From IMG/VR virus record IMGVR_UViG_2734482770_000003: a DNA stretch of 35,160 nt; one strand, given 5' to 3'. The notes below the pieces were generated by a model that worked only from the letters and a program-made list of their open reading frames with translations, was not told the DNA's origin and searched no databases. This document shows, piece after piece, positions 478 through 33,714 of the stretch. Positions within the stretch are counted from its first letter, which is position 1; every line of letters begins with the position of its first letter. A program made the position numbers and the translations under genes. Source of the stretch: a virus (lineage: Duplodnaviria; Heunggongvirae; Uroviricota; Caudoviricetes).

Positions 478-504
478 AAAAAATAAGCCCGTGTAAGGGA
501 GATT
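478..504. repeat. attL core: 27-bp direct repeat aaaaaataagcccgtgtaagggagatt
   Basis: Exact 27/27 identity with 33628..33654; flanks diverge on both sides; sequence corresponds to the 3' terminator end of cyaR (reverse complement). Confidence 0.85.
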
Positions 505-583
505 TAGGGTGTCACCAGTAGGGGCTTTCAACAGTACAATGCGGGTTTGAGCGGCATAAATTACCACTGAAAGCCCTTAAACG

Positions 584-1597
584 TTACTCTACTGTGGACA
601 CTGTGTGGACACTCTCGGCCTCAGTACCACCTCTTAGCGGATTAAGAGAAATGGCGTCCTGAAGGTACTCTGGCGCAAAATGAGCGTAAACCATAGTTTG
701 CTCAATCCGCGTGTGACCTAGTATCCGTTGTAGCGTGATAATACTTCCTCCATTAATCATGAAATGAGTGGCAAAGCTGTGCCTTAGTGCATGTGTGGCT
801 TGCCCCATTGGCAAATCCGGTTTTATTGCTTTCATTGTTCGTCTGAAGCGAGGGTAATCAGCATCAGGGAATAAAAAACCTCGTTTGTTATCCGCGATCA
901 TTTTGGCAACAGCCTCTGAGATCGGGACGGTGCGTGGTTTGTTTGTTTTCGTTTTAACAAACGTGACGCGGTTATGGATGATATTTTCTGCTTTCAAACG
1001 AGCTGCTTCTCCCCAACGTGCTCCAGTACTCAGGCAAAGAATCGCAATCTTTTTGTTGTCGCCGTCAAGAGCAGCAAGCAGTAAGGCAATTTCTTCCTGC
1101 GTGAGATAGCCTGTGTCTGGTTTTTCCTCCTTAAGCCTTTTTGTCCCTCTGATAGGGTGCTCACCAAAGAATAACTCCGCTTCAATCAGGGCTGTAAACA
1201 TGCCGCTAATACATGTTAAATCACGATTGATACTCGAAGGTTTAATACCCTGACTTCTTCGGGTGGCGCAGTACTGGCTGATAAGCGATTTCGTAATTTG
1301 AAATGCGCATGGGTCATTCGTTATTTTTGTGAAGATTTCAATTTTTCCAAGATTAGATTTCCCATGCTCTTCGTGTTTACCCTTTAAATCCCACCAGATC
1401 TGTGTCAGCTCCGACAGACGTCGCTTGTCTGTTGGTTTTGATAGCCATTCTTTATTGTGGTGGTTGTACAACGTGTATTTCTCGAAAGCGACAGCTTCGC
1501 TTTTCTTATCAAACTTCCTACGGATGCGTTTTCCATTACGTCCAGTAGGGCGGATGTCCACTTCATATCGACCATCATCGAGTTTTTTGATTGCCAT
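584..1597 (-). CDS. int: Tyrosine-type site-specific integrase (P2 Int-like)
   Basis: 337 aa, same length as P2 Int; C-terminal HxxR...Y catalytic region (HALRHSFATHF ... VYAHFAP); adjacent to attL; SD-like ggaggg upstream of start. Confidence 0.9.
   Translation of the reverse strand: MAIKKLDDGRYEVDIRPTGRNGKRIRRKFDKKSEAVAFEKYTLYNHHNKEWLSKPTDKRRLSELTQIWWDLKGKHEEHGKSNLGKIEIFTKITNDPCAFQITKSLISQYCATRRSQGIKPSSINRDLTCISGMFTALIEAELFFGEHPIRGTKRLKEEKPDTGYLTQEEIALLLAALDGDNKKIAILCLSTGARWGEAARLKAENIIHNRVTFVKTKTNKPRTVPISEAVAKMIADNKRGFLFPDADYPRFRRTMKAIKPDLPMGQATHALRHSFATHFMINGGSIITLQRILGHTRIEQTMVYAHFAPEYLQDAISLNPLRGGTEAESVHTVSTVE
593..613. repeat. Tandem tgtggacac repeats (11-bp period) in the P' arm; putative arm-type Int binding sites
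   Basis: tgtggacac at 593..601 and 604..612; a related pair tgtggtca/tgtggacg at 33569..33576 and 33580..33587 in the P arm with the same 11-bp period. Confidence 0.35.
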
Positions 1598-1712
1598 CAG
1601 AAAACCCTCCGAGTGGTGTGTTTTTTTGCGACTACTAATCGCTTTTTTCGTGGTGGCTGAAATTTAGCCACCAATAGTAGGCACTTGTGATGAATATATT
1701 CACGATGAATTG

Positions 1713-2012
1713 TTAACCAGTCTTTTGACCGGAGTGGGGCGACGTTGTTTCGTTTTGCCCAAAGTGTGCGAGAGCGGGCGCAATTTGCCCGGACTCAGGA
1801 GCGATCTGATTGGTCATGAACCATAAAGTGTATTTGGTGAATTGTGGGGTCTGCAGGATGTTCATCATGACATCTGTTGGAGGTGTTGAACGACCACTTT
1901 CATAGTAACTCAGCGTGCCATACGGAACCCCTGTTAAATCAGCAAGTTGTTGTCTGCTCAAATACTCTGATTTTCGCATTAAGACTATCTTCTCGCTTAT
2001 CGTGTTTGACAT
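1713..2012 (-). CDS. C: Immunity repressor (P2 C-like)
   Basis: 99 aa (same as P2 C); helix-turn-helix-like N-terminus (LSRQQLADLTGVPYGTLSYYESG); divergent from cox, next to int. Confidence 0.85.
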   Translation of the reverse strand: MSNTISEKIVLMRKSEYLSRQQLADLTGVPYGTLSYYESGRSTPPTDVMMNILQTPQFTKYTLWFMTNQIAPESGQIAPALAHFGQNETTSPHSGQKTG

Positions 2013-2126
2013 GGTGTTTAGATCTCAATAGTATTTAGTTTAGATGTAGATTGTTTAGTGCTTGGATGTGGGCACTAAAAGGCATTATAAGACATTAAAC
2101 GCAATTCATGAGGGCTAGAGGACGAC
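2004..2126. promoter_or_regulatory. Immunity switch region: rightward early promoter (Pe-like) with direct-repeat operator half-sites; leftward C promoter likely in same interval
   Basis: -35 ttgaca 2006..2011, 17-bp spacer, -10 tagtat 2029..2034; direct repeats gtttagat at 2016..2023 and 2038..2045 (22 bp apart) flank the -10, as for P2 O1/O2; a tataat on the opposite strand at 2084..2089. Confidence 0.5.
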
Positions 2127-2402
2127 ATGAGCAAGCAAGTAACACTCATGACTGATGCGATTCCTTATCAGGAGTTCGCAAAACTAATAGGAAAATCGAC
2201 AGGAGCGGTTCGTCGGATGATCGATAAAGGAAAGCTGCCTGTAATTGATATGACCGATCCACAATCAGCTTCAGGTCGTGCAGGTGAATATTGGGTATAC
2301 CTTCCGGCATGGAATAACGGACTAAAACTGGCTTATGAAAGCCGCCCTAAAGAGATTCGTGACGGCTGGTTGATGTGGTTAGGTCTCGGTGAACCACGTT
2401 AA
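2127..2402 (+). CDS. cox: Cox (excisionase/transcriptional regulator of lysogenic promoter)
   Basis: 91 aa (same as P2 Cox); first gene of rightward early operon, divergent from C. Confidence 0.85.
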   Translation: MSKQVTLMTDAIPYQEFAKLIGKSTGAVRRMIDKGKLPVIDMTDPQSASGRAGEYWVYLPAWNNGLKLAYESRPKEIRDGWLMWLGLGEPR

Positions 2403-2412
2403 GGAGAACCGT

Positions 2413-2583
2413 ATGAATGAGCCTCGTTGTATTGCTCAGTTACTGCGTAACGAAAGCCCCAGGGCGATTGACTTCACCATCACCCACGGTAAGGGGCGTA
2501 AGGGAATCATTATCCGCACCAAAAAACAGAGTCCGTTAAAAAAGGCTCTGACCTTTCTGAAAAGCCGGAGGGTATGGAAATGA
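2413..2583 (+). CDS. Small hypothetical early protein (P2 orf78 position)
   Basis: ATG at 2413 preceded by aaggag (2401..2406); ORF track shows a longer GTG-initiated form from 2389. Confidence 0.5.
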   Translation: MNEPRCIAQLLRNESPRAIDFTITHGKGRKGIIIRTKKQSPLKKALTFLKSRRVWK

Positions 2584-3080
2584 CAGTGATGACGCTCAAT
2601 CTCGTTGAAAAACAGCCAGCAGCTATGCGCCGGATAATTGGTAAGCATCTTGCTGTTCCTCGCTGGCAGGAGACATGTGATTATTATAATCAGATGATGG
2701 AGCGCGAACGGCTAACGGTTTGCTTTCATGCGCAGTTAAAACAGCGTCACGCAACGATGCGTTTTGAAGAAATGAACGACGTCGAACGTGAACGGCTGGT
2801 TTGTGCAATTGATGAATTGCGTGGTGCATTCTCAAAACGCCGTCAGGTTGGCGCAAGTGAGTATGCATATATTAGTTTTTTAACAGTCAGTCAGCGTCGC
2901 ACTTTATTTATGCATGCCGGATTGACTGAAAAAGAATTCAACCAGCCATACTGGCGAATTAATGAAGAGTCATGTTACTGGCGTGATGCTTTATTCCGTG
3001 CATTACGTGAATTATTCAGCCTGTTTGAGTATGCACCGACAATTCTGACGTCGGTAAAACCAGAGCAATATCTGCATTAA
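2580..3080 (+). CDS. B: Replication protein B (helicase-loader-like)
   Basis: 166 aa from ATG at 2580 (P2 B is 166 aa); position between cox and A; ggag at 2567..2570. Confidence 0.7.
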   Translation: MTVMTLNLVEKQPAAMRRIIGKHLAVPRWQETCDYYNQMMERERLTVCFHAQLKQRHATMRFEEMNDVERERLVCAIDELRGAFSKRRQVGASEYAYISFLTVSQRRTLFMHAGLTEKEFNQPYWRINEESCYWRDALFRALRELFSLFEYAPTILTSVKPEQYLH

Positions 3081-3143
3081 GTAATTAACCAGAGTTTTTA
3101 ACGCACTTAATTGTGCGGGGCTTCTTTTTGCCTGGAGAAAGTC

Positions 3144-3368
3144 ATGCATACAGTTTCTGAAAATCAGTGCGGTAAATACGCATTACTGCTGCAACAGGCC
3201 AGAACCGAAGCACAGGCCGACGCTGCGACGCGCTTTTCTTCTCATCTTGACGCCATGATTCGCCATATCACAAAGGCGGAGTTATCCCGCGTGGAGATAG
3301 TCGAGCTGCTCAGTCAGGAGTCGGAAAAATTTCACAATATCGGATTGTCTCGCGGGGAGGTGCTTTGA
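3144..3368 (+). CDS. Hypothetical early protein (P2 orf80 position)
   Basis: ATG at 3144 preceded by ggagaaag; translationally coupled gene string. Confidence 0.5.
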
Positions 3369-3670
3369 TGTCCTGTTCTCATTCAGTTGTATTACTGAAT
3401 AACGCCTTAAAAATCGCCGTTATGAAAAATGGCGATTTGTCTCTTATTCAACTTTGTCTTGATAAAGAAAAACGCGACATAACTGAATCTGTTATCGCGA
3501 TTTATCAGAATGAATTAAACCTCCTGTCTGATGTGGTCAATTTACTTGTTAAACGCGCTGTATTTCATAAGCAAATTTCATCCGTGGATGAACTGACAAA
3601 ATTAACGACAGAAATCGCCAGCTATTGCGCTGATGAATTTAAGAAGCTGAACGACAAAAGGAGCTGGTAA
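3365..3670 (+). CDS. Hypothetical early protein (P2 orf81 position)
   Basis: 101-aa ORF, start overlaps preceding stop (ATGA-type coupling). Confidence 0.5.
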
Positions 3671-3894
3671 TGCCGGACAACATAGATTTTATTCAGGAAC
3701 AACAGGCTGAATTACTGGAGCGCCAGATTAACGCGGCAAGGGTAAAACATTGCGGTGTTTCTGCGCTGGTTTGCGAAGAGTGTGACGCGCCAATACCTGC
3801 TGCCCGTCGTGCAGCTTATCCGTCAGCCACGCGTTGTGTTTCCTGCCAGTCAGTCTTTGAAGCAAAAAACAAGCATTACCGGAGAATGGCATGA
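3670..3894 (+). CDS. TraR/DksA-family C4-type zinc-finger protein (P2 orf82 position)
   Basis: 74 aa with CxxC...CxxC (CEECDAP ... CVSCQ), typical of TraR/DksA-like phage proteins. Confidence 0.7.
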   Translation: MPDNIDFIQEQQAELLERQINAARVKHCGVSALVCEECDAPIPAARRAAYPSATRCVSCQSVFEAKNKHYRRMA

Positions 3895-4166
3895 GTATTC
3901 GTATCGAAATTGGCGAACGTTATGTCGTTACCAGTGACAGCTTTCAGTTTATTCTCCACGAGAAAAAGAGAGCGGAAAGCGGTAAAAACGCCGGTCAGGA
4001 ATGGCTGGCGGTGGTTGGTTATTACCCGAAATTAAGCCAGCTCGTTTCCGGCCTGATGCATCACGATATTCTGACCGGAAGCGCAAAGTCTTTTGCTGAT
4101 TTAAACGCGCAGGTTGAGCAACTCAGCAAGCGTTGTTCTGAGGCTTTTGGCTCATATGGCCGTTAA
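3891..4166 (+). CDS. Hypothetical early protein (P2 orf83 position)
   Basis: 91-aa ORF; stop overlaps A start region. Confidence 0.5.
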   Translation: MSIRIEIGERYVVTSDSFQFILHEKKRAESGKNAGQEWLAVVGYYPKLSQLVSGLMHHDILTGSAKSFADLNAQVEQLSKRCSEAFGSYGR

Positions 4167-6279
4167 AGCCTCCGGGCGTTTTGTCCCTCCGTCAGCATTT
4201 GCCGCAGGCACCGGTAAGGCGTTTACCGGTGCTTATGCATGGAACGCGCCACGCGAGGCTGTCGGGCGCGAAAGACCTCTTACACGTGACGAGATGCGTC
4301 AGGTGCAAGGTGTTTTATCCACGATTAACCGCCTGCCTTACTTTTTGCGCTCGCTGTTTACTTCACGCTATGACTACATCCGGCGCAATAAAAGCCCGGT
4401 GCACGGGTTTTATTTCCTCACATCCACTTTTCAGCGTCGTTTATGGCCGCGCATTGAGCGTGTGAATCAGCGCCATGAAATGAACACCGACGCGTCGTTA
4501 CTGTTTCTGGCAGAGCGTGACCACTATGCGCGCCTGCCGGGAATGAATGACAAGGAGCTGAAAAAGTTTGCTGCCCGTATCTCATCGCAGCTTTTCATGA
4601 TGTATGAGGAACTCAGCGATGCCTGGGTGGATGCACATGGCGAAAAAGAATCGCTGTTTACGGATGAGGCGCAGGCTCACCTCTATGGTCATGTTGCTGG
4701 CGCTGCACGTGCTTTCAATATTTCCCCTCTCTACTGGAACAAATACCGTAAAGGGCAGATGACCACGAGGCAGGCATATTCTGCCATTGCCCGTCTGTTT
4801 AACGATGAGTGGTGGACTCATCAGCTTAAAGGCCAGCGTATGCGCTGGCATGAGGCGTTACTGATAGCTGTCGGGGAGGTCAATAAAGACCGTTCACCTT
4901 ATGCCAGTAAACATGCCATTCGTGATGTGCGTGCGCGCCGCCAGGCAAATCTGGAATTTCTTAAATCGTGTGACCTTGAAAACAGGGAAACCGGCGAGCG
5001 CATCGACCTTATCAGTAAGGTGATGGGCAGTATTTCTAATCCTGAAATTCGCCGGATGGAGCTGATGAACACCATTGCCGGTATTGAGCGTTACGCCGCC
5101 TCAGAGGGTGATGTGGGGATGTTTATCACGCTGACCGCGCCGTCAAAGTATCACCCAACACGTCAGGTCAGAAAAGGCGAAAGCAAAACCGTCCAGCTAA
5201 ATCACGGCTGGAATGATGAGGCATTTAATCCAAAGGATGCGCAGCGTTATCTCTGCCGTATCTGGAGCCTGATGCGCACGGCATTCAAGGATAATGATTT
5301 ACAGGCCTACGGTTTGCGTGTTGTTGAACCACACCACGACGGAACGCCGCACTGGCATATGATGCTTTTTTGTAATCCACGCCAGCGTAACCAGATTATT
5401 GAAATCATGCGTCGCTATGCGCTCAAAGAGGATGGCGACGAAAGAGGAGCCGCGCGAAACCGTTTTCAGGCAAAACACCTTAACCGGGGCGGTGCTGCGG
5501 GATATATCGCGAAATACATCTCAAAAAACATCGACGGCTATGCACTGGATGGTCAGCTCGATAATGATACCGGTAGGCCGCTGAAAGACACAGCTGCGGC
5601 TGTTACCGCATGGGCGTCAACGTGGCGCATTCCGCAATTTAAAACGGTTGGTCTGCCGACAATGGGGGCTTACCGTGAACTACGCAAATTGCCTCGTGGC
5701 GTCAGCATTGCTGATGAGTTTGACGAGCGCGTCGAGGCTGCACGCGCCGCTGCAGACAGTGGTGATTTTGCGTTGTATATCAGCGCGCAGGGCGGGGCAA
5801 ATGTCCCGCGCGATTGTCAGACTGTCAGGGTCGCCCGTAGCCCGTCGGATGACGTTAACGAGTACGAGGAAGAAGTCGAGAGAGTGGTCGGCATTTACGC
5901 GCCGCATCTCGGCGCGCGTCATATTCATATCACCAGAACGACGGACTGGCGCATTGTTCCGAAAGTGCCGGTCGTTGAGCCTTTGACTTTAAAAAGCGGC
6001 ATCGCCGCGCCTCGGAGTCCTGTCAATAACTGTGGAAAGCTCACCTGTGGCGATACTTCGTTACCGGCTCCCACACCTTCTGAGCACGCCGCAGCAGTGC
6101 TTAATCTGGTAGATGACGGTGTTATCGAATGGAATGACCCGGAGGTCTTGAAAGTGCTTAATCTGGCATTGAAAATAGAAGCATCACGTAAATGTACAAA
6201 CAAAGGAGACACACGAGCAGGCATAGTTGGCGAGTCAACCGCGATTTTCAATGTACAGGATGCTGATAATCAACAATGA
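4156..6279 (+). CDS. A: Replication initiation endonuclease gpA (rolling-circle nickase)
   Basis: Starts MAVKASGRFVPPSAFAAG as I recall for P2 gpA; contains HxH-like TPHWHMMLF and tyrosine-motif region GYIAKYISKNIDGY; ATG at 4156 in frame with the longer track ORF from 4114. Confidence 0.9.
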   Translation: MAVKASGRFVPPSAFAAGTGKAFTGAYAWNAPREAVGRERPLTRDEMRQVQGVLSTINRLPYFLRSLFTSRYDYIRRNKSPVHGFYFLTSTFQRRLWPRIERVNQRHEMNTDASLLFLAERDHYARLPGMNDKELKKFAARISSQLFMMYEELSDAWVDAHGEKESLFTDEAQAHLYGHVAGAARAFNISPLYWNKYRKGQMTTRQAYSAIARLFNDEWWTHQLKGQRMRWHEALLIAVGEVNKDRSPYASKHAIRDVRARRQANLEFLKSCDLENRETGERIDLISKVMGSISNPEIRRMELMNTIAGIERYAASEGDVGMFITLTAPSKYHPTRQVRKGESKTVQLNHGWNDEAFNPKDAQRYLCRIWSLMRTAFKDNDLQAYGLRVVEPHHDGTPHWHMMLFCNPRQRNQIIEIMRRYALKEDGDERGAARNRFQAKHLNRGGAAGYIAKYISKNIDGYALDGQLDNDTGRPLKDTAAAVTAWASTWRIPQFKTVGLPTMGAYRELRKLPRGVSIADEFDERVEAARAAADSGDFALYISAQGGANVPRDCQTVRVARSPSDDVNEYEEEVERVVGIYAPHLGARHIHITRTTDWRIVPKVPVVEPLTLKSGIAAPRSPVNNCGKLTCGDTSLPAPTPSEHAAAVLNLVDDGVIEWNDPEVLKVLNLALKIEASRKCTNKGDTRAGIVGESTAIFNVQDADNQQ

Positions 6280-9812: not shown

Positions 9813-10847
9813 TCAGCCGTTGTCAGTGTCCAGTGAGTAGTTTTTAAAGCGGATGACCTCCTGACCGAGCCAGCCGTTTATCTCACGGATCCTGTCCTGT
9901 AACGGGATAAGCTCATTGCGGACAAAGACCTTTGCCACTTTCTCAATATCACCCAGCGACCCGACGTTCTCCGGCTTGCCGCCCATCAACTGAAAGGGGA
10001 TGCGGTGCGCGTCAAGCAGGTCAGCGGCGCTGGCTTTTTTGATATTAAAAAAATCGTCCTTCGTTGCCACTTCACTGAGCGGGATAATTTTAATGCCGTC
10101 GGCTTTCCCCTGCGGGGCATAGAGAAACAGATTTTTAAAGTTGTTGCGGCCTTTCGACTTCACCATGTTTTCGCGAAGCATTTCGATATCGTTGCGATCC
10201 TGCACGGCATCGGTGACGTACATGATGTATCCGGCATGTGCGCCGTTTTCGTAATACTTGCGGCGGAACAGCGTGGCCGACTCATTCAGCCAGGCAGAGT
10301 TAAGGGCGCTGAGATATTCCGGCAGGCCGTACAACTCCTGATTAATATCCGGCTCCAGCAGGTGAAACACGGAGCCGGGCGCGAAGGCTGTCGGCTCGTT
10401 GAAGGACGGCACCCACCAGTAAACATCCTCTTCCACACCACGGCGGGTATATTTTGCCGGTGAGGTTTCCAGTCTGATGACCTTACCGGTGGTGCTGTAA
10501 CGCTTTTCCAGAAACGCATTACCGAACACCAGAAAATCCAGCACAAAGCGGCTGAAATCCTGCTGGGAAAGCCACGGGTGCGGGATAAACGTTGAAGCCA
10601 GAATATTACGTTTGACGTAAATCGGTGAGCTGTGATGCACGGCAGCACGCAGGCTTTTTGCCAGACCGGTAAAGCTGACCGGTGGCTCATACCATCTGCC
10701 GTTACTGATGCATTCGACGTAATCCAGAATGTCACGGCGGTCGAGTACCGGCACTGGCTCACCAAAGGTGAATGCCTCCATTTTCGGGGCGCTGGCGGTC
10801 ATTTTTTTTGCCGCAGGTTGCTGTGTTTTCCCTTTTTTCTTGCTCAT
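9813..10847 (-). CDS. Q: Portal protein gpQ
   Basis: 344 aa (same as P2 Q); start ATG overlaps P stop; first gene after cos on opposite strand. Confidence 0.9.
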   Translation of the reverse strand: MSKKKGKTQQPAAKKMTASAPKMEAFTFGEPVPVLDRRDILDYVECISNGRWYEPPVSFTGLAKSLRAAVHHSSPIYVKRNILASTFIPHPWLSQQDFSRFVLDFLVFGNAFLEKRYSTTGKVIRLETSPAKYTRRGVEEDVYWWVPSFNEPTAFAPGSVFHLLEPDINQELYGLPEYLSALNSAWLNESATLFRRKYYENGAHAGYIMYVTDAVQDRNDIEMLRENMVKSKGRNNFKNLFLYAPQGKADGIKIIPLSEVATKDDFFNIKKASAADLLDAHRIPFQLMGGKPENVGSLGDIEKVAKVFVRNELIPLQDRIREINGWLGQEVIRFKNYSLDTDNG

Positions 10848-12619: not shown

Positions 12620-12792
12620 GAATACCTCGCCGTGATGAATACACGGCAAGGCTACTGAGTCGCGCCCCGCGATTCGCTAAGGTGCTGTTGTGTCAGTGAT
12701 AAGCCATCCGGGACTGATGGCGGAGGATGCGCATCGTCGGGAAACTGATGCCGACATGTGACTCCTCTAATCACTATTCAGGACTCCTGACA

Positions 12793-13647: not shown

Positions 13648-13705
13648 CCGGCGTCAGTCAGTCCGGGAAAACCTTCACGATTAACCCTTAATTTCAGGAA
13701 AAACT

Positions 13706-14779: not shown

Positions 14780-14782
14780 CCG

Positions 14783-20563: not shown

Positions 20564-20907
20564 CAGCGCGTTATCTCGGAATGAATCGCAGTGATGGCCT
20601 GACTGTCACTGACCTTGAGCATATCAGCCAGGGTATCGGCGATATCCTGCGCACACCGGTCGGCTCACGGGTGATGCGTCGTGATTACGGCTCGTTGCTG
20701 GCGTCAATGATTGACCAGCCGCAGACCCCGGCGCTTGAGTTGCAGATTAAGGTCGCCTGTTACATGGCGGTGCTGAAATGGGAACCCCGCGTCACCCTGT
20801 CATCCGTCACCACGGCGCGCAGTTTTGACGGGCGAATGACGGTCACGTTAACCGGCCAGCACAACGACACCGGCCAGCCACTTTCGTTAACCATCCCTGT
20901 GAGTTGA
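20560..20907 (+). CDS. W: Baseplate wedge protein gpW
   Basis: 115 aa (same as P2 W); overlaps V stop. Confidence 0.85.
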   Translation: MTARYLGMNRSDGLTVTDLEHISQGIGDILRTPVGSRVMRRDYGSLLASMIDQPQTPALELQIKVACYMAVLKWEPRVTLSSVTTARSFDGRMTVTLTGQHNDTGQPLSLTIPVS

Positions 20908-20911
20908 AACC

Positions 20912-21820: not shown

Positions 21821-22343
21821 TTCGCGACTGCTGCCGACCGGCTCATCACCGCTTGAAGTCGCCGCCGCAAAAGCCTGTGCGGAAATTGAAAAAACGCCGG
21901 TCAGTATTCGTGAGCTGTGGAACCCGGATACCTGTCCGGCAAATCTGCTGCCGTGGCTGGCGTGGGCGTTTTCGGTCGACAGGTGGGATGAAAAGTGGCC
22001 GGAAGCGACAAAACGCGCCGTTATCCGCGATGCCTATTTCATCCACTGTCATAAAGGCACTATAGGTGCAATCCGGCGTGTGGTGGAGCCGCTGGGCTAT
22101 CTCATCAACGTGACGGAGTGGTGGGAAACCAGTGACCCGCCCGGCACCTTCCGGCTTGATATTGGTGTACTGGAAAGCGGTATCACAGAGGCAATGTATC
22201 AGGAAATGGAACGGCTGATTGCTGATGCCAAACCTGCAAGCCGCCACCTTATTGGCCTGAACATTACCCGGGACATTCCCGGCTACCTGTTCGCCGGTGG
22301 TGTGGCTTACGACGGCGATGTAATTACGGTTTACCCCGGATAA
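21813..22343 (+). CDS. I: Baseplate/tail protein gpI
   Basis: 176 aa (same as P2 I). Confidence 0.85.
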   Translation: MSDSRLLPTGSSPLEVAAAKACAEIEKTPVSIRELWNPDTCPANLLPWLAWAFSVDRWDEKWPEATKRAVIRDAYFIHCHKGTIGAIRRVVEPLGYLINVTEWWETSDPPGTFRLDIGVLESGITEAMYQEMERLIADAKPASRHLIGLNITRDIPGYLFAGGVAYDGDVITVYPG

Positions 22344-22353
22344 GTGAGGAATA

Positions 22354-24672: not shown

Positions 24673-24675
24673 TTT

Positions 24676-25203
24676 ATGCAGCATTTGATAAATATAACGG
24701 CGGGTAATCCAAAAACAGTTGAACAATATCAATTGACAAAGAACTTTGATGTTGTCTGGTTTTTTACAGAAGATGGTAAGAACTGGTACGAAGAACAAAA
24801 GTATTTTGCTGATGACACGATAAAAATAGCGTACGACAAAGATAATATCATCCGCTATGTGGAAAAGGATGTGACAGCTATCAGACCGGATGGATTAAGT
24901 GTGGTTGAAGTGGCGGATATTACTGCTAACCGACGGGCGGACATTTCAGGGAACTGGATGTTTAAGGACGGCAAAGTGATTAAACGCATTTATACGGCAG
25001 ATGAATTGCGGCGGCAGGCAGAAATTCGGAAAGTCAGACTTCTTGCAGATGCTGAATCCGTGATTTTGCCGCTGGAGCGCGCTGTCAGGCTGAACATGGC
25101 AACAGATGAGGAGCGTAGCCGACTGGAAGCATGGGAGCGTTACAGCGTTCTGGTCAGTCGTGTGGATCCTGCAAATCCTGAATGGCCGGAAATGCCGCAA
25201 TAA
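24676..25203 (+). CDS. G: Tail fibre assembly chaperone gpG
   Basis: 175 aa (same as P2 G); directly downstream of H. Confidence 0.85.
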
Positions 25204-25567: not shown

Positions 25568-26593
25568 TCATTCAATAATGTCTGGTAGAACATTAAATCC
25601 AGTTGGTCGAAAAAAGGATAATCTTTGCTGATGAGAAACTAAATCTATCTTCACAATGTGATGATGGTTTTTTTTGATTTTTCTAGAGTACAATGAGTAA
25701 AAAAGATTTTCTGTGTTAATTTCCACAATGATTCCAGACATATCTAAGTCATAGCATTTTGCTAATGCTTTCAATTTTGGTGATATTTTGCTCTCTTTAA
25801 ACTTTTCATTATATTCCGGTTGAAAATATCTTATCAAAGCAGCTTCGATTATATTAATGGCTTGATTTTTGTTTGGGTGATTTTTTAATGCAAACTTAAA
25901 TCGCTTGTCATCGCTATCCGTATCATTAATTAATCCAGACCTCCCATCTAGAGATGAGAATACTTGTTCATGCTCAAAGGCATACATAAAAAGCATGATC
26001 TCTTGATCTGGCTTGTTATAAAGCGTTTGCGCCAATATTTTTTGTAATTTTGAATGACTCCTTAAACGTTCAACTGCATTCCTGCTACCATTTTTACCTA
26101 CGGCTTGTCCAATATAAAGAACTTCATATGAGGACAGATCTGAATAGTAACCTAATTTACTTGAATATAAGGTGGCAATGAAAGATGCAGAGATGTAAGT
26201 TACCTCCTCCCCTTCATTATTTATACTAATAACTTCTCTGAATGGATAGTTACATATTATATCAGTTGCATCGTCTTCTAATATCCAGTTGTGTTCAAAA
26301 TGGAACTTGCTTTCTTTACCATCTATTTTGTACCCTATCTCTCCTGAGAGAATGTTTTTCTCATGATTAATTGTATTATCAATAAAATAAAAGCTTGGGC
26401 GAGCGCATATAAAGTATATATGGCATTTTGAAAGTTGTTTTTCTTGTTCTAAATTAATTTTTGCATCAGACGTTAGTTGCTGAGCAGTAAGCATCGCTGT
26501 AAAACTATTTAAGTATCCAAAAGCAAATTCGTGTATGAATTTTCTTTTCACTCGAAATATCCTCACTAGAAATGAATAATATTGGTTTTTCAT
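25568..26593 (-). CDS. Unrecognised cargo protein at the Z/fun position (candidate defence/exclusion gene)
   Basis: 341 aa, no TM segments evident, AT-rich, opposite strand to tail genes, flanked by AT-rich non-coding DNA on both sides. Confidence 0.6.
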   Translation of the reverse strand: MKNQYYSFLVRIFRVKRKFIHEFAFGYLNSFTAMLTAQQLTSDAKINLEQEKQLSKCHIYFICARPSFYFIDNTINHEKNILSGEIGYKIDGKESKFHFEHNWILEDDATDIICNYPFREVISINNEGEEVTYISASFIATLYSSKLGYYSDLSSYEVLYIGQAVGKNGSRNAVERLRSHSKLQKILAQTLYNKPDQEIMLFMYAFEHEQVFSSLDGRSGLINDTDSDDKRFKFALKNHPNKNQAINIIEAALIRYFQPEYNEKFKESKISPKLKALAKCYDLDMSGIIVEINTENLFYSLYSRKIKKNHHHIVKIDLVSHQQRLSFFRPTGFNVLPDIIE

Positions 26594-26922: not shown

Positions 26923-28113
26923 ATGAGTGACTATCATCACGGCGTGCAGGTGCTGGAGATTAACGACGGCACCCGCGTCATTTCCACCGTATCCACTGCC
27001 ATTGTCGGCATGGTCTGCACGGCCAGCGATGCGGATGCGGAAACCTTCCCCCTCAATAAACCGGTGCTGATTACCAATGTGCAGAGCGCAATTGCAAAGG
27101 CCGGTAAAAAAGGCACGCTGGCGGCGTCGTTACAGGCCATCGCTGACCAGTCAAAACCGGTCACCGTTGTCGTCCGTGTGGAAGACGGCACCGGCGAAGA
27201 CGAAGAAACGAAACTCGCGCAGACCGTTTCCAATATCATCGGCACCACCGACGAAAACGGCCAGTACACCGGACTGAAAGCCCTGCTGGCGGCAGAATCG
27301 GTAACCGGTGTTAAACCGCGTATTCTCGGTGTGCCGGGACTGGACACCAAAGAGGTGGCCGTCGCACTGGCATCAGTCTGTCAGAAGCTGCGCGCTTTCG
27401 GGTATATCAGCGCATGGGGCTGTAAAACCATTTCTGAGGTGAAAGCCTACCGCCAGAATTTCAGCCAGCGTGAGTTGATGGTCATCTGGCCTGATTTCCT
27501 CGCATGGGATACGGTCACCAGTACCACCGCCACCGCGTATGCCACCGCCCGTGCGCTGGGTCTGCGTGCCAAAATCGACCAGGAGCAGGGCTGGCATAAA
27601 ACGCTGTCCAACGTCGGGGTAAACGGTGTTACCGGCATCAGTGCCTCTGTATTCTGGGATTTGCAGGAGTCCGGCACCGATGCTGACCTGTTGAACGAGT
27701 CAGGTGTCACAACGCTGATTCGCCGTGACGGTTTCCGCTTCTGGGGTAACCGTACCTGCTCTGATGACCCGCTGTTCCTCTTTGAAAACTACACCCGCAC
27801 CGCGCAGGTGCTGGCCGACACGATGGCTGAGGCGCACATGTGGGCGGTGGACAAGCCCATCACCGCAACGCTGATTCGCGACATCGTTGACGGTATCAAT
27901 GCCAAATTCCGTGAGCTGAAAACAAACGGCTATATCGTGGATGCGACCTGCTGGTTCAGCGAAGAATCCAACGATGCGGAAACCCTCAAGGCCGGAAAAC
28001 TGTATATCGACTACGACTATACACCGGTGCCTCCTCTCGAAAACCTGACCCTGCGCCAGCGTATTACCGATAAATACCTGGCAAATCTGGTTACTTCGGT
28101 TAACAGCAATTAA
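26923..28113 (+). CDS. FI: Tail sheath protein gpFI
   Basis: 396 aa (same as P2 FI); ggag SD. Confidence 0.9.
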   Translation: MSDYHHGVQVLEINDGTRVISTVSTAIVGMVCTASDADAETFPLNKPVLITNVQSAIAKAGKKGTLAASLQAIADQSKPVTVVVRVEDGTGEDEETKLAQTVSNIIGTTDENGQYTGLKALLAAESVTGVKPRILGVPGLDTKEVAVALASVCQKLRAFGYISAWGCKTISEVKAYRQNFSQRELMVIWPDFLAWDTVTSTTATAYATARALGLRAKIDQEQGWHKTLSNVGVNGVTGISASVFWDLQESGTDADLLNESGVTTLIRRDGFRFWGNRTCSDDPLFLFENYTRTAQVLADTMAEAHMWAVDKPITATLIRDIVDGINAKFRELKTNGYIVDATCWFSEESNDAETLKAGKLYIDYDYTPVPPLENLTLRQRITDKYLANLVTSVNSN

Positions 28114-28125
28114 GGAGCCTGACCG

Positions 28126-28644
28126 ATGGCAATGCCGCGCAAACTCAAGTTAATGAACGTCTTTCTGAACGGCTACAGCTATCAGGGCGTCGCGAAGTCC
28201 GTCACGCTGCCAAAACTGACCCGTAAGCTCGAAAACTATCGCGGTGCGGGGATGAACGGCAGCGCACCGGTAGACCTCGGCCTTGATGACGATGCGCTGT
28301 CAATGGAGTGGTCGCTCGGTGGCTTCCCGGATTCGGTTATCTGGGAGCTTTACGCCGCAACCGGTGTGGATGCCGTACCGATTCGTTTTGCAGGCTCTTA
28401 CCAGCGCGACGATACCGGCGAAACGGTGGCCGTCGAGGTGGTCATGCGTGGACGTCAGAAAGAAATCGACACCGGCGAGGGCAAACAGGGAGAAGACACC
28501 GAGTCGAAAATCTCCGTGGTCTGCACCTATTTCCGGCTGACGATGGACGGTAAGGAGCTGGTCGAAATCGACACCATCAACATGATTGAGAAGGTGAACG
28601 GCGTCGACCGGCTGGAGCAACACCGCCGCAATATCGGCCTGTGA
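28126..28644 (+). CDS. FII: Tail tube protein gpFII
   Basis: 172 aa (same as P2 FII). Confidence 0.9.
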   Translation: MAMPRKLKLMNVFLNGYSYQGVAKSVTLPKLTRKLENYRGAGMNGSAPVDLGLDDDALSMEWSLGGFPDSVIWELYAATGVDAVPIRFAGSYQRDDTGETVAVEVVMRGRQKEIDTGEGKQGEDTESKISVVCTYFRLTMDGKELVEIDTINMIEKVNGVDRLEQHRRNIGL

Positions 28645-28700
28645 TTTTCATCCGGTCAGCCTGGCTGACCGGTTAACCCCGATTCAGAAGTGAGAAAACC

Positions 28701-28976
28701 ATGAACAAAGAAAATGTGATTACCCTGGACAATCCGGTCAAGCGTGGTGAGCAGGTTATCGAACAGGTCACGCTGATGAAACCCAATGCCGGGACGCTGC
28801 GCGGTGTCAGTCTGGCTGCGGTCGCGAACTCTGAAGTCGATGCACTGATTAAGGTGCTGCCGCGCATGACGGCACCGATGCTGACCGAGCAGGAAGTCGC
28901 CGCGCTGGAACTGCCTGACCTTGTGGCGCTGGCCGGTAAGGTGGTCGGTTTTTTGTCGCCGAACTCGGTGCAGTGA
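28701..28976 (+). CDS. E: Tail assembly chaperone gpE
   Basis: 91 aa (same as P2 E); immediately upstream of tape measure gene. Confidence 0.8.
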   Translation: MNKENVITLDNPVKRGEQVIEQVTLMKPNAGTLRGVSLAAVANSEVDALIKVLPRMTAPMLTEQEVAALELPDLVALAGKVVGFLSPNSVQ

Positions 28977-29128
28977 CGTTTCCGAAAAATCTCTCGGTCG
29001 ATGACCTGATGGCAGATGTGGCTGTGATATTTCACTGGCCGCCATCAGAACTGTATCCCATGAGCCTGACCGAACTCATCACATGGCGCGAAAAGGCGCT
29101 CCGGCGAAGCGGAAACACGAATGAGTAA
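28701..29128 (+). CDS. E': gpE+E' fusion produced by programmed -1 frameshift at TTTTTTG (28949..28955)
   Basis: Slippery run ggTTTTTTg in gpE frame; -1 frame stays open to TAA at 29126..29128 (hand-translated ...LITWREKALRRSGNTNE*), overlapping T start; conserved tail-chaperone frameshift arrangement. Confidence 0.6.
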
Positions 29129-31568
29129 CAATGTAAAATTACAGGTATTGCTCAGGGCTGTTGACCAGGCATCCCGCCCGTTTAAATCCATCCGTACAGC
29201 GAGCAAGTCGCTGTCGGGGGATATCCGGGAAACACAAAAATCACTGCGCGAGCTGAACGGTCAGGCGTCCCGTATTGAGGGATTTCGCAAGACCAGTGCG
29301 CAGCTCGCCGTGACTGGTCATGCACTTGAAAAGGCTCGGCAGGAAGCCGAAGCCCTTGCCACACAGTTTAAAAACACCGAACGTCCGACCCGTGCTCAGG
29401 CGAAAGTGCTGGAATCCGCAAAGCGTGCGGCGGAGGACTTACAGGCGAAATATAACCGCCTGACGGATTCCGTTAAGCGCCAGCAGCGGGAACTGGCCGC
29501 TGTGGGAATTAATACCCGCAATCTTGCACATGATGAGCAGGGGCTGAAAAACCGTATCAGTGAAACCACCGCACAGCTTAACCGTCAGCGCGACGCACTG
29601 GCGCGTGTCAGTGCACAACAGGCAAAACTTAACGCAGTAAAACAGCGTTATCAGGCCGGAAAGGAACTGGCAGGAAATATGGCCTCAGTGGGCGCTGCCG
29701 GTGTGGGGATTGCTGCTGCGGGAACGATGACCGGTGTTAAGCTGCTGATGCCCGGTTATGAGTTTGCGCAGAAAAACTCAGAATTGCAGGCCGTGCTAGG
29801 TGTGGCAAAAGACTCCGCCGAAATGGCCGCACTCCGCAAGCAGGCGCGCCAGCTCGGTGACAATACTGCCGCCTCGGCGGATGATGCTGCCGGTGCGCAG
29901 ATTATCATTGCGAAAGCCGGTGGGGATGTTGATGCCATTCAGGCAGCAACGCCGGTCACGCTGAATATGGCACTGGCGAACCGCCGCACGATGGAAGAAA
30001 ACGCCGCCCTGCTGATGGGGATGAAATCCGCCTTTCAGCTTTCAAACGATAAGGTCGCTCATATCGGGGATGTTCTCTCCATGACGATGAACAAAACCGC
30101 CGCCGATTTTGACGGCATGAGCGATGCGCTGACCTATGCCGCACCTGTGGCAAAAAATGCCGGTGTCAGCATTGAAGAAACCGCCGCAATGGTCGGGGCG
30201 CTGCATGATGCAAAAATCACAGGCTCAATGGCGGGGACGGGAAGCCGTGCCGTGTTAAGCCGCCTGCAGGCACCGACGGGAAAAGCATGGGATGCACTCA
30301 AAGAGCTTGGAGTGAAAACCTCAGACAGCAAGGGAAACACCCGGCCAATATTTACCATTCTGAAAGAAATGCAGGCCAGTTTTGAGAAAAACTGGCTCGG
30401 TACTGCCCAGCAGGCTGAATACATGAAAACCATTTTCGGGGAGGAGGCCAGCTCATCCGCCGCTGTGCTGATGACTGCCGCCTCAACCGGAAAGCTGGAC
30501 AAACTGACCGCTGCGTTTAAAGCCTCAGACGGGAAGACCGCAGAGCTGGTAAATATCATGCAGGACAATCTCGGCGGTGACTTTAAGGAGTTTCAGTCCG
30601 CTTATGAGGCGGTGGGGACTGACCTGTTTGACCAGCAGGAAGGCGCACTGCGTAAGCTCACGCAGACGGCCACAATGTATGTGTTAAAACTCGACGGCTG
30701 GATCCAGAAAAACAAATCACTGGCGTCAACCATCGGCATTATTGCCGGTGGTGCACTGGCGCTGACTGGCATCATTGGTGCCATTGGCCTCGTAGCCTGG
30801 CCGGTTATCACCGGCATCAATGCTATTATCGCGGCAGCAGGCGCAATGGGGGCAATCTTCACGACGGTTGGCAGTGCTGTTATGACGGCCATCGGGGCGA
30901 TTAGCTGGCCGGTTGTGGCCGTGGTGGCCGCCATTGTCGCCGGGGCGTTGCTTATCCGTAAATACTGGGAGCCTGTCAGCGCATTCTTCGGCGGTGTGGT
31001 TGAAGGGCTGAAAGCGGCATTTGCGCCGGTGGGGGAACTGTTCACGCCACTTAAGCCGGTGTTTGACTGGCTGGGCGAAAAGTTACAGGCCGCGTGGCAG
31101 TGGTTTAAAAACCTGATTGCCCCGGTCAAAGCCACCCAGGACACCCTGAACCGTTGCCGTGATACGGGCGTCATGTTCGGGCAGGCACTGGCTGACGCGC
31201 TGATGCTGCCGCTTAATGCGTTCAACAAACTGCGCAGCGGTATTGACTGGGTACTGGAAAAACTCGGTGTTATCAACAAAGAGTCAGGCACGCTTGACCA
31301 GACAGCCGCCAGAACTCATGCCGCCACGTATGGCACCGGTGGTTATATTCCTGCGACCAGCTCTTATGCAGGCTATCAGGCTTATCAGCCGGTTACGGCA
31401 CCGGCTGGCCGCTCTTATGTGGACCAGAGTAAAAACGAATATCACATCAGTCTGACGAGCGGTACTGCGCCGGGGACTCAGCTCGACCGCCAGTTACAGG
31501 ATGCGCTCGAAAAATACGAGCGGGATAAACGTGCGCGCGCCCGTGCCAGCATGATGCATGACGGTTAA
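29121..31568 (+). CDS. T: Tail tape measure protein gpT
   Basis: 815 aa (same as P2 T); coiled-coil N-terminal part, Gly/Ala-rich hydrophobic central segment. Confidence 0.9.
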   Translation: MSNNVKLQVLLRAVDQASRPFKSIRTASKSLSGDIRETQKSLRELNGQASRIEGFRKTSAQLAVTGHALEKARQEAEALATQFKNTERPTRAQAKVLESAKRAAEDLQAKYNRLTDSVKRQQRELAAVGINTRNLAHDEQGLKNRISETTAQLNRQRDALARVSAQQAKLNAVKQRYQAGKELAGNMASVGAAGVGIAAAGTMTGVKLLMPGYEFAQKNSELQAVLGVAKDSAEMAALRKQARQLGDNTAASADDAAGAQIIIAKAGGDVDAIQAATPVTLNMALANRRTMEENAALLMGMKSAFQLSNDKVAHIGDVLSMTMNKTAADFDGMSDALTYAAPVAKNAGVSIEETAAMVGALHDAKITGSMAGTGSRAVLSRLQAPTGKAWDALKELGVKTSDSKGNTRPIFTILKEMQASFEKNWLGTAQQAEYMKTIFGEEASSSAAVLMTAASTGKLDKLTAAFKASDGKTAELVNIMQDNLGGDFKEFQSAYEAVGTDLFDQQEGALRKLTQTATMYVLKLDGWIQKNKSLASTIGIIAGGALALTGIIGAIGLVAWPVITGINAIIAAAGAMGAIFTTVGSAVMTAIGAISWPVVAVVAAIVAGALLIRKYWEPVSAFFGGVVEGLKAAFAPVGELFTPLKPVFDWLGEKLQAAWQWFKNLIAPVKATQDTLNRCRDTGVMFGQALADALMLPLNAFNKLRSGIDWVLEKLGVINKESGTLDQTAARTHAATYGTGGYIPATSSYAGYQAYQPVTAPAGRSYVDQSKNEYHISLTSGTAPGTQLDRQLQDALEKYERDKRARARASMMHDG

Positions 31569-31582
31569 GGAGGTGACGAAAA

Positions 31583-32062
31583 ATGATGCTCGCGTTAGGT
31601 ATGTTTGTTTTTATGCGCCAGACGCTGCCACACCAGACCATGCAGCGCGAATCAGATTATCGCTGGCCGTCAAATTCCCGTATCGGTAAACGGGATGCCT
31701 TTCAGTTTCTCGGTGTGGGTGAGGAAAACATCACGCTTGCCGGTGTGCTTTATCCCGAACTGACCGGCGGCAAGCTGACGATGACCACGCTCAGACTGAT
31801 GGCAGAGGAAGGCCGGGCGTGGCCGTTGCTGGATGGCACCGGCATGATTTACGGCATGTATGTCATCAGCAAGGTGAGTGAAACAGGGAGTATTTTCTTT
31901 GCAGACGGCACACCCCGGAAAATTGATTTTACGCTGTCGCTCACCCGCGTTGATGAATCACTGGCCGCGCTTTATGGCGATATCGGTAAACAGGCGGAAT
32001 CGCTCATCGGTAAGGCTGGCAGTATGGCGACTAAATTCACGGGTATGACGGGGGCGGGATAA
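31583..32062 (+). CDS. U: Tail protein gpU
   Basis: 159 aa (same as P2 U). Confidence 0.85.
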   Translation: MMLALGMFVFMRQTLPHQTMQRESDYRWPSNSRIGKRDAFQFLGVGEENITLAGVLYPELTGGKLTMTTLRLMAEEGRAWPLLDGTGMIYGMYVISKVSETGSIFFADGTPRKIDFTLSLTRVDESLAALYGDIGKQAESLIGKAGSMATKFTGMTGAG

Positions 32063-33225
32063 TGCTGGATGCGCTGACATTTGATGCAGGCAGTACGCTG
32101 ACGCCGGATTACATGCTGATGCTCGACAGCAGGGATATTACCGGCAATATCAGCGACCGTCTGATGAGCATGACCCTGACGGATAACCGGGGCTTTGAGG
32201 CTGACCAGCTTGATATTGAACTGAACGACGCCGACGGGCAGGTCGGGCTACCGATTCGTGGCGCTGTCCTGACGGTGTATATCGGCTGGAAAGGTTTTGC
32301 CCTGGTATGCAAAGGGAAATTTACCGTTGATGAGGTTGAACACCGGGGCGCACCGGATGTGGTCACCATCCGCGCCCGGAGTGCAGATTTCCGCGGGACG
32401 CTCAATTCCCGCCGGGAAGGCTCCTGGCATGACACCACGCTCGGTGCGATTGTTGAGGCGATAGCCTCCCGTAACAAGCTGGAGGCCAGTGTCGCTCCGT
32501 CACTGGCCGGAATTAAAATCCCGCACATCGACCAGTCGCAGGAGTCTGATGCGAAATTCCTGACCCGTCTTGCAGAACGCAACGGCGGTGAGGTGTCGGT
32601 AAAAATGGGAAAACTGTTGTTTCTCAAAGCGGGGCAGGGGGTGACGGCCAGCGGTAAAAAAATCCCGCAGGTCACCATCACCCGCAGCGACGGCGACCGT
32701 CATCATTTTGCGATTGCTGACCGTGGAGCCTATACCGGCGTTACGGCAAAGTGGTTACACACCAAAGACCCGAAGCCGCAAAAGCAGAAGGTAAAACTGA
32801 AACGCAAAAAGAAAGAGAAACACCTGCGCGCACTGGAGCACCCGAAAGCGAAACCGGTCACGCAGAAGAAAGAGCCAAAAGTACCGGAAGCGCGCGAAGG
32901 TGAATACATGGCCGGTGAGGCTGACAACGTTTTTGCCCTGACCACGGTATATGCCACGAAAGCACAGGCCATGCGCGCCGCTCAGGCGAAGTGGGATAAA
33001 CTACAACGGGGTGTTGCGGAGTTCTCCATCAGCCTGGCTACTGGTCGGGCAGATATTTACACGGAAACACCGGTTAAAGTGTCAGGCTTTAAGCGCGTCA
33101 TAGACGAGCAGGACTGGACCATCACTAAGGTGACACATTGTCTCAATAATAGCGGCTTCACGACGTCCTTGGAGCTTGAGGTCAGGCTTTCTGATGTGGA
33201 GTACGAAACAGAAGATGATGAGTGA
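32062..33225 (+). CDS. D: Tail protein gpD (late gene)
   Basis: 387 aa (same as P2 D); start overlaps U stop. Confidence 0.85.
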   Translation: MLDALTFDAGSTLTPDYMLMLDSRDITGNISDRLMSMTLTDNRGFEADQLDIELNDADGQVGLPIRGAVLTVYIGWKGFALVCKGKFTVDEVEHRGAPDVVTIRARSADFRGTLNSRREGSWHDTTLGAIVEAIASRNKLEASVAPSLAGIKIPHIDQSQESDAKFLTRLAERNGGEVSVKMGKLLFLKAGQGVTASGKKIPQVTITRSDGDRHHFAIADRGAYTGVTAKWLHTKDPKPQKQKVKLKRKKKEKHLRALEHPKAKPVTQKKEPKVPEAREGEYMAGEADNVFALTTVYATKAQAMRAAQAKWDKLQRGVAEFSISLATGRADIYTETPVKVSGFKRVIDEQDWTITKVTHCLNNSGFTTSLELEVRLSDVEYETEDDE

Positions 33226-33306
33226 TGTTTTTGTTTTATCTGTTTGTTTTATAAGGATAAATTAACTAAAATGGCACCATCAACAAAACCGGAAGAGGTG
33301 CTCGCG

Positions 33307-33525
33307 ATGTTTCATTGTCCTTTATGCCAGCATGCCGCACATGCGCGTACAAGTCGCTATATCACTGACACGACAAAAGAGCGTTATCACCAGTGTCAGA
33401 ACGTGAATTGCAGCGCCACGTTCATCACTTATGAGTCGGTACAGCGATACATCGTGAAGCCGGGAGAAGTCCACGCCGTAAGGCCGCACCCGTTGCCGTC
33501 AGGGCAGCAAATTATGTGGATGTAA
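33307..33525 (+). CDS. ogr: Ogr late-gene transcription activator (C4 zinc finger)
   Basis: 72 aa from ATG at 33307 (MFHCPLCQ...), CxxC...CxxxxC zinc-finger pattern; last gene before attR. Confidence 0.85.
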   Translation: MFHCPLCQHAAHARTSRYITDTTKERYHQCQNVNCSATFITYESVQRYIVKPGEVHAVRPHPLPSGQQIMWM

Positions 33526-33537
33526 TTAGAAACAGGA

Positions 33538-33563
33538 AGCCCCTCAGTCGAGGGGCTTTTTTT
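33538..33563 (+). terminator. Rho-independent terminator after ogr
   Basis: Hairpin gcccctc-agtc-gaggggc followed by seven T. Confidence 0.7.
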
Positions 33564-33627
33564 GTCGATGTGGTCAATGTGTGGACGTGACTAGAAATAA
33601 ATCCTTTTATTTCAATTTGTTGTACGT

Positions 33628-33654
33628 AAAAAATAAGCCCGTGTAAGGGAGATT
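33628..33654. repeat. attR core: 27-bp direct repeat identical to attL core
   Basis: Exact match to 478..504; forms the 3' end of cyaR on the minus strand. Confidence 0.85.
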
Positions 33655-33714
33655 ACACAGGCTAAGGAGGTGGTTCCTGGTACAGCTAGCATTTTATGGG
33701 TTATGTTTTTCAGC
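33628..33714 (-). ncRNA. cyaR: CyaR (RyeE) Hfq-dependent sRNA
   Basis: Minus-strand sequence reads gctgaaaaacataacccataaaatgctagctgtaccaggaaccacctccttagcctgtgtaatctcccttacacgggcttatttttt, matching CyaR as I recall it, including the CACCUCCUU anti-SD region and terminator hairpin with U-tail. Confidence 0.8.

Follow-up and report, generated by a model that had tools for sequence, protein, structure and literature searches.

Does the prophage lying between yegR and yegQ in this window (the whole 35,160-nt stretch of DNA analysed) occupy the 3' end of the gene for the sRNA CyaR, and is that gene left whole by the insertion? Our analysis points to an apparently intact lysogenic P2 (Peduovirus P2) at the site locI, whose 27-bp attachment core is the terminator end of cyaR, a reading that we hold at a probability of about 95%.

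Attachment cores and boundaries of the element

An exact 27-bp direct repeat (AAAAAATAAGCCCGTGTAAGGGAGATT) occurs in only two copies in the window, at 478-504 and 33628-33654, and the element between them measures 33.15 kb. The repeat is the annotated attP core of P2 (AF063097, 24356-24382), with 27/27 identity at both ends of the element, and corresponds to the last 27 nt of cyaR, in line with the initial annotation, which had described the att core as the terminator end of this gene. The features of the attachment region are listed below; the Cox-binding and P' arm coordinates were carried over from the P2 annotation via a 98-99.6% identical alignment.

319..477: host B arm of attB, matching the empty site of E. 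coli GF153 exactly; positions 425-464 resemble the P arm of P2
478..504: attL core, equal to the P2 attP core and with nothing of cyaR but its last 27 nt; a non-functional stub with no stable fold
521..618: Cox-binding region (521-594) and P' arm Int sites (592-618, TGTGGACA twice), P2 annotation transferred
33536..33629: ogr terminator (about 33536-33560), P arm Int site (33565-33592) and IHF site (33596-33629), transferred from P2 (24265-24357)
33628..33654: attR core, which doubles as the 3' end of the intact cyaR

When the element is excised in silico, positions 319-504 joined to 33655-33798 match, at 330/330, the spacer that separates yegR from yegQ in E. coli GF153 (NZ_CP172181), whose empty site holds the exact 27-nt core that the initial annotation expected of an uninfected locus. 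That the repeat arose by chance or through an unrelated duplication, with the true prophage ends elsewhere, is next to inconceivable: the number of copies expected by chance was 0, even with up to 3 mismatches tolerated (100 dinucleotide-preserving shuffles), the repeat coincides with an annotated attP core, and removing the DNA between its copies regenerates a real empty site base for base, which refutes this explanation.

Gene content and identity of the prophage

Aligned by blastn, the element follows the order of P2 from end to end at 96-98% identity, save for three known variable regions, and reaches 99.6% over region 478-2500. With the P2 proteins as tblastn queries, the four non-essential genes orf91, tin, old and fun(Z) proved absent from the element; the remaining 38 proteins were all found, 36 of them full length, A over 675/761 residues and the tail-fibre protein H over 251/669. 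The assignment to the P2 family made earlier is upheld by Int, C, Cox and Ogr, as given in the following list of genes and sites.

1..318, plus strand: yegR, host left flank, named after PGAP in matching E. coli genomes (a Pfam search with this ORF gave no match)
584..1597, minus strand: int, P2 tyrosine integrase, 337 aa, 99.7% identity to P2 Int; Pfam Int_N and Phage_integrase
1713..2012, minus strand: C, immunity repressor, 100% identity to P2 C; Pfam HTH_3
2127..2402, plus strand: cox, excisionase and repressor of Pc, 100% identity to P2 Cox; Pfam Phage_Cox, E 5.5e-48
2413..6279, plus strand: early operon with orf78, B, orf80-83 and A (replication nickase); past residue 675, the C-terminus of A no longer follows P2
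9625..9643: cos site, exact 19-nt match to the P2 cohesive end
9813..25203: late genes Q and P (minus strand), O to S (plus), orf30 (minus) and V, W, J, I, H, G (plus), by tblastn and collinear blastn
26923..33225, plus strand: tail genes FI, FII, E, T, U and D, full length, 98-100% identity to P2
33307..33525, plus strand: ogr, late-gene activator, 72 aa, 100% identity to P2 Ogr; Pfam Ogr_Delta
33799..35160, minus strand: yegQ (trhP), host right flank, after the annotation of matching loci

Among the late genes of 9813..25203, the P2 proteins match full length at 93-100% (orf30 at 85%) in tblastn, while the C-terminal part of the tail fibre H (23080-24617), a gene that contains 132-bp repeats, and G diverge from P2. 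The A protein has 707 aa, versus 761 in P2, its C-terminus being replaced after residue 675. An ORF at 19844-20230 (minus strand), considered as a cargo gene, was discarded as spurious: it matches no family and lies in P2-collinear DNA, where it overlaps the pV promoter and the beginning of V.

Two loci carry genes that are foreign to P2:

6395..9467, plus strand: SIR2 (6395-7648) and HerA (about 7653-9467), an anti-phage pair predicted by PADLOC and NCBIfam at the tin/old hotspot
25568..26593, minus strand: uncharacterised protein of 327-341 aa with a GIY-YIG-like fold, at the Z/fun hotspot, replacing fun(Z)

Both members of the first locus were detected by PADLOC (SIR2, 4.3e-190; HerA, 2.1e-277), and the NCBIfam models SIR2_antiphage and HerA_antiphage scored 507.2 bits (cut-off 500) and 710.4 bits (under the curated cut-off of 800), respectively. 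Based on these family assignments, the SIR2-HerA pair of the prophage is a predicted defence pair. The GIY-YIG-fold cargo protein is rare and sits in a defence hotspot; its 341-aa ORF found no match by tblastn in 50,697 phage records.

The divergent C-terminus of A after residue 675 and the three replaced regions could be taken as signs of a cryptic, defective P2-like remnant comparable to ogrK-yegZ of K-12, where decay at the cyaR site is documented, rather than of a functional prophage. Yet the essential P2 genes are all present without frameshifts and, save A, full length at 93-100% identity, the cos, attL, attR and arm sites are intact, and the replacements fall in the tail-fibre tip and in cargo hotspots already known, parts in which viable P2-like phages differ from one another; we regard a defective element as very unlikely. 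By analogy with established P2 biology the prophage would be viable, on the assumption that it remains competent for replication despite the replaced C-terminus of A.

The cyaR gene at the two junctions

The sRNA gene itself reads as follows.

33628..33714, minus strand: cyaR (ryeE) sRNA gene, complete, by Rfam RF00112, identity to K-12 b4438 and a terminator hairpin that folds

The Rfam family CyaR_RyeE (RF00112) gives a single full-length match at 33631-33716 on the minus strand (model positions 1-85 of 85), with a covariance-model score of 100.7 bits (gathering score 47; E 3.4e-19), and the annotated 87-nt cyaR of K-12 MG1655 (b4438) aligns at 33714..33628 (minus strand) with 87/87 identity; the copy at attR is also identical to that of the empty site. 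Covariance model and K-12 match thus agree with the complete 87-nt CyaR that the initial annotation had placed beside yegQ at attR, and the truncated 3' fragment that it reported at attL is likewise there, reduced to 27 nt. Of its further statement that a phage-supplied core completes the gene at attR, the intact CyaR stands, whereas the origin of the core has to be left aside, since attP and attB are identical over all 27 bp and the phage-supplied copy is indistinguishable from the other.

The terminator of CyaR, a CRP-dependent sRNA, forms an 11-bp stem in the minimum-free-energy fold (z -3.43); of this terminator the core takes in the loop, the stem's 3' half and the U tract. On its other side the gene keeps its conserved neighbourhood, with yegQ lying 85 nt upstream and a promoter side made of untouched host DNA, the same as in the empty site. 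Past the terminator, the U tract counts 6 U at attR versus 7 U at the empty site, so that the annotated 87 nt are restored exactly, whereas the base that follows them is not. The stub at attL was also considered as an RNA or as a terminator of int, and rejected, its fold being no better than those of shuffled sequences (z 0.14).

From established P2 biology, the arrangement may be accounted for as follows. P2 Int, a tyrosine recombinase that would require IHF, would have joined attP to attB by recombination between their 27-bp cores, leaving the yegQ-side junction (attR) with an 87-nt cyaR that is unchanged because the two cores are identical, and the yegR-side junction (attL) with a mere 27-nt stub devoid of promoter, seed and 5' stem half. 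Excision would take Int and Cox, and the empty site would be regained without any change. As cyaR and ogr are convergent and each has its own terminator, sRNA and prophage would be insulated from each other.

Integration might nevertheless not be neutral for the sRNA, if the new downstream context altered the termination, Hfq binding or level of CyaR. The transcription of ogr converges on cyaR, the attR sequence reads 6 U followed by ACGUAC where the empty site reads 7 U followed by AUGCAU, and the length of the U tail is known to matter for Hfq-dependent sRNAs in general. Such an effect is nonetheless unlikely in our view: neither the annotated 87 nt nor the terminator hairpin differs, and K-12, in which CyaR was characterised, itself has the phage-type attR context.

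One O157:H7 genome (TR01) carries a foreign att core in place of the cyaR terminator.

Comparison with related elements

The E. coli C lysogen that carries P2 at locI shares with the window the 27-bp core, Int, C, Cox and Ogr, as well as the architecture of the attP arms, the gene order and the chromosomal location between yegR and yegQ. Relative to P2, the window has SIR2-HerA in place of orf91-tin-old and the GIY-YIG-fold protein in place of fun(Z), and differs in the tip of tail fibre H, in G and in the C-terminus of A. The cryptic remnant ogrK-yegZ of K-12 (PR-X), which the initial annotation had assigned to the same locus, is indeed found there, in the order yegR, host arm, 18 nt of core, D' (yegZ), ogrK, P arm, full core and cyaR. 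It has the same attR as the window (P arm, core, cyaR), with about 96.7% identity over D'-ogr-attR, but has lost the stretch that runs from position 18 of the attL core as far as mid-gene D, whereas the window holds a complete phage.

The same overlap of core and terminator end is seen in integrations at the 3' ends of tRNA, tmRNA (ssrA) and other sRNA genes (ryeB/sdsR in Salmonella, rybB with P2-like prophages), where the target is likewise a small structured RNA gene and the element brings a copy that restores it. In contrast to tRNA-type sites, the target in the window is an Hfq-dependent regulatory sRNA, and it is attR, the junction on the ogr side and distant from int, that holds the intact gene. 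A second group of P2-like phages (Escherichia phages S164, pro483 and P24A7b) has a near-identical ogr and P arm and the architecture of P2, but another core of 26 nt (AAAAAATGTCACCAATAACTGACATT); the right junction of an element of this type adjoins pflB in strain 90-3040, and no Rfam family was found at the pflB-side att site.

Known status and frequency of the site

The overlap of the P2 site with cyaR (ryeE) has been noted ever since the sRNA was discovered. PMC3931495 quotes the same 27-mer as the core of locI, the preferred site of P2 in E. coli C; in Table 2 of PMC3032704 the P2-type prophages of strains W, K-12 and B are assigned to "cyaR RNA" as their site of insertion, and PMC3603311 names ryeE as a previously known phage target. 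What the initial annotation called a recurrent P2-family site is in fact the classical preferred site of P2 itself, and the weight it gave to the use of an sRNA gene was too high, cyaR/ryeE being already listed as a phage target. The reading of P2 at cyaR is correct but ordinary, and already known.

Among 5,426 complete E. coli genomes, the empty junction is spanned in 4,208 (about 78%), the P2-type right junction (attR) is present in 1,204 (about 22%) and the attL junction with P2 int in 817. In a scan for exact matches with one genome per species, Escherichia/Shigella and Kluyvera had the 27-mer, as did two records under the title Enterobacter hormaechei, and no others; the core of Salmonella, E. 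albertii and E. fergusonii differs from it by one base.

A possible older scar beside the core

The host B arm shares a 15-mer (TCGATGTGGTCAATG) with the annotated P-arm Int site of P2, and this exact 15-mer contains one Int arm-type site (TGTGGTCA), in the host arm beside the core. In the genome MOD1-EC7003 of an Escherichia cryptic clade, the host arm also keeps sequence of the IHF region. We tentatively propose, at slightly less than even odds and from sequence resemblance, that the "empty" cyaR-yegR site of Escherichia may be the scar, or fossil attR, of a far older P2-like prophage; the opposite direction, in which P2 captured its own P arm from the host cyaR locus, would account for the likeness equally. 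Were the site a fossil attR, P2 would be inserting itself into an attR that an ancestor left behind, all E. coli would carry phage-derived sequence immediately downstream of CyaR, and the K-12 remnant would represent a younger stage of the same cycle of decay.

Implications

As a textbook P2 attachment site, the locus carries little weight as a discovery. It is useful as a clean, verified case of a phage that takes the terminator of a regulatory sRNA as its attB and yet rebuilds the gene. Judging from the junctions counted, about one-fifth of sequenced E. coli, K-12 included, would express the sRNA CyaR from a copy flanked by phage DNA.

A P2 prophage and its cargo

The initial annotation had placed a P2-family prophage at 478-33714, and comparison with P2 bears this out. 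In a blastn comparison with the complete P2 genome, the window is collinear from attP across int, C, cox, B and A, then over cos, all head, lysis and tail genes, D and ogr, and back to attP, with 96-98% identity. Over the left end of the element (478-2500), identity is 99.6% to bacteriophage P2 (AF063097) and 99.9-100% to several Peduovirus records. When every P2 protein was used as a tblastn query, 38 were matched, 36 of them at full length and at 93-100% identity, except for orf30 (85%) and G (74%); the partial matches are A (675 of 761 residues) and the tail-fibre protein H (251 of 669), and the only ones absent, orf91, tin, old and fun(Z), are non-essential. Int shares 99.7% identity with that of P2; for C, Cox and Ogr the figure is 100%, and Pfam concurs for all four. 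Measured from repeat to repeat, the phage genome is 33,150 bp long.

Features of the window discussed in the text
478-504: 27-bp repeat AAAAAATAAGCCCGTGTAAGGGAGATT, exact copy at attL
33628-33654: second exact copy, at attR
33631-33716, minus strand: CyaR_RyeE (RF00112), full model, 100.7 bits versus a gathering score of 47
9625-9643: cos, exact 19-nt P2 cohesive end
6395-9467, plus strand: SIR2-HerA defence pair, in the tin/old hotspot between A and cos
25568-26593, minus strand: uncharacterised cargo ORF (327-341 aa), in the Z/fun hotspot

The SIR2-HerA pair stands in place of orf91, tin and old (PADLOC E-values of 4e-190 for SIR2 and 2e-277 for HerA); SIR2 passes the NCBIfam SIR2_antiphage cut-off (507.2 versus 500), and HerA lies under that of HerA_antiphage (710.4 versus 800). 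In A, a shorter, unrelated C-terminus takes the place of the last ~86 residues of the P2 protein. The tail-fibre gene H carries three 132-bp tandem units (22854-23361), and the C-terminal part of H is unrelated to that of P2 and is found together with the divergent assembly protein G (23080-25283), which implies from sequence a receptor specificity different from that of P2.

The ORF that replaces fun(Z) matched no Pfam, NCBIfam or PADLOC family. It is rare in complete E. coli genomes (6 of 5,426), and a search of 50,697 phage records gave no match. Its 139 homologues are annotated as "hypothetical", and the named ones belong mostly to Gammaproteobacteria. The predicted fold, together with six residues invariant in a 41-sequence alignment of the family (Y146, G148, R162, H166, E236, N248), matches GIY-YIG nucleases. 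In the record of P0022 (named Serratia) the homologue has an AAA_15/AAA_21 ATPase alongside it, and in the records of P0066 (named Pseudomonas syringae) it lies between tra genes as ICE cargo; the first kind of surroundings is defence-island-like. We propose the product as a candidate new single-gene antiviral (anti-phage) nuclease.

Integration into the terminator of cyaR

The 27-bp repeat occurs exactly twice in the window, where shuffled sequence would be expected to give no match even at three mismatches. It coincides with the P2 feature annotated "attP core" (24356-24382), and the arm-type Int sites, IHF site and Cox-binding region annotated in P2 are each conserved where expected. CyaR_RyeE was the sole above-threshold match in an Rfam scan of the whole window. 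As the initial annotation had proposed, the core is the terminator end of cyaR; it takes in the terminator loop with the 3' half of its stem, and the U tract. The minus strand from 33714 to 33628 is base for base the 87-nt cyaR of E. coli K-12 MG1655 (b4438), in agreement with the coordinates in the initial annotation. The truncated 3' fragment expected at attL is also there: these 27 nt are all that represents cyaR, and minus-strand RNA around attL folds no better than shuffles (z of 0.14 versus -3.43 for complete cyaR).

The prophage is the product of site-specific integration by the P2 tyrosine integrase at the preferred attB of P2; the recombination chemistry and the requirements for IHF and Cox would be those of established P2 biology and the P2 record annotation. 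Since attP and attB do not differ within the core, cyaR emerges from the exchange unchanged on the attR side, and attL keeps a 27-nt stub that lacks a promoter. At attR, ogr (plus strand) and cyaR (minus strand) converge, each with its own terminator.

An empty locus confirms this arrangement: E. coli GF153 holds no prophage between yegR and yegQ, and its intergenic region there agrees at 330/330 positions, core included, with window positions 319-504 joined to 33655-33798. The T/U run after the terminator is seven long where the site is empty and also at attL, but six at attR and in K-12 (477-483 versus 33627-33633). For the sRNA, the base past its annotated 3' end is the only difference: A follows six U at attR, against seven U in the empty site. 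The CyaR copy studied in K-12 therefore has a phage-type downstream context. The K-12 remnant ogrK-yegZ does lie at this locus: there the host arm, with the first 18 core nucleotides, runs directly into the 3' portion of gene D (yegZ), and next come ogrK, the P arm, the complete core and cyaR.

Among 5,426 complete E. coli genomes, the empty junction is spanned in 4,208, the ogr-side junction (P arm-core-cyaR) in 1,204 and the int-side junction (host arm-core-P' arm) in 817; the surplus of right over left junctions fits K-12-type remnants.

PMC3931495, restating classical work, gives the window's own 27-nt core and locus as locI, the preferred P2 site in E. coli C, and a P2 remnant at that site in K-12. 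According to the E. coli W genome paper (PMC3032704, Table 2), P2-type elements are inserted at "cyaR RNA" in W (Wphi2), K-12 (ogr-D') and B, and the rybB ncRNA is another site of this type. Bobay et al. describe E. coli ryeE as [quoted passage not shown] (PMC3603311). The P2 prophage at cyaR is therefore correctly observed and interpreted, and already known.

A divergent junction in TR01

E. coli O157:H7 TR01 (NZ_CP033605; L033 2960-3000 and L035 5900-6320 of our compared loci) carries the same P2 int, with an identical protein, and a normal attL. At its attR, AAAAAATGTCACCAATAACTGACATT replaces the 27-bp core. This is the att core of another P2-like phage group (S164, pro483, P24A7b), and TR01 CyaR thus has a foreign 3' hairpin, with an Rfam score of 55.4 bits versus 100.7 in the window. 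TR01 is the only identified example of such a swapped 3' end, and its junction may reflect aberrant recombination or an assembly artefact. The right junction of the S164/pro483/P24A7b type adjoins pflB in E. coli 90-3040, ~190 nt from the end of that gene (locus L036, 2566-2700). On the minus strand, the 26-nt core of this junction is itself a hairpin with a T run after it, and no Rfam family matched there.

Origin of the attachment site

In the empty site, TTCTATCGATGTGGTCAATGGAAGACGGTTACCAGAGATA, situated 53 nt from the core in the direction of yegR, aligns with phage TTTTGTCGATGTGGTCAATGTGTGGACGTGACTAGAAATA (regions compared: window 425-477 and 33560-33627). The two arms have in common an exact 15-mer, inside an annotated Int arm-binding site of P2, and their local alignment score was reached by 9 of 2,000 shuffles. 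The orthologous arm of the cryptic-clade Escherichia sp. MOD1-EC7003, 79.8% identical to that of E. coli over 198 nt, also has AATCCTTCTGTTTCATTGA, which matches the phage IHF-site region and where E. coli shows a 14-nt gap. This cryptic-clade arm (L026 597-687) is more phage-like than that of E. coli, and a single BLAST alignment joins it, the core and cyaR-yegQ with the phage-side attR of the window. Taken with the more phage-like cryptic-clade arm, the likeness suggests as the simplest reading that the "attB" of Escherichia derives from the attR of an older P2-like prophage and is now its decayed fossil, to which we give slightly less than even odds from these alignments; the phage may instead have captured host DNA at this locus.

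Beyond E. coli, many Kluyvera species and two records titled Enterobacter hormaechei have the exact core as their cyaR terminator, and the sequence downstream of it is mostly unrelated. A P2-like P arm adjoins the core in Kluyvera intermedia (L025) and in one further record (L007), and the cyaR site is therefore used outside E. coli.
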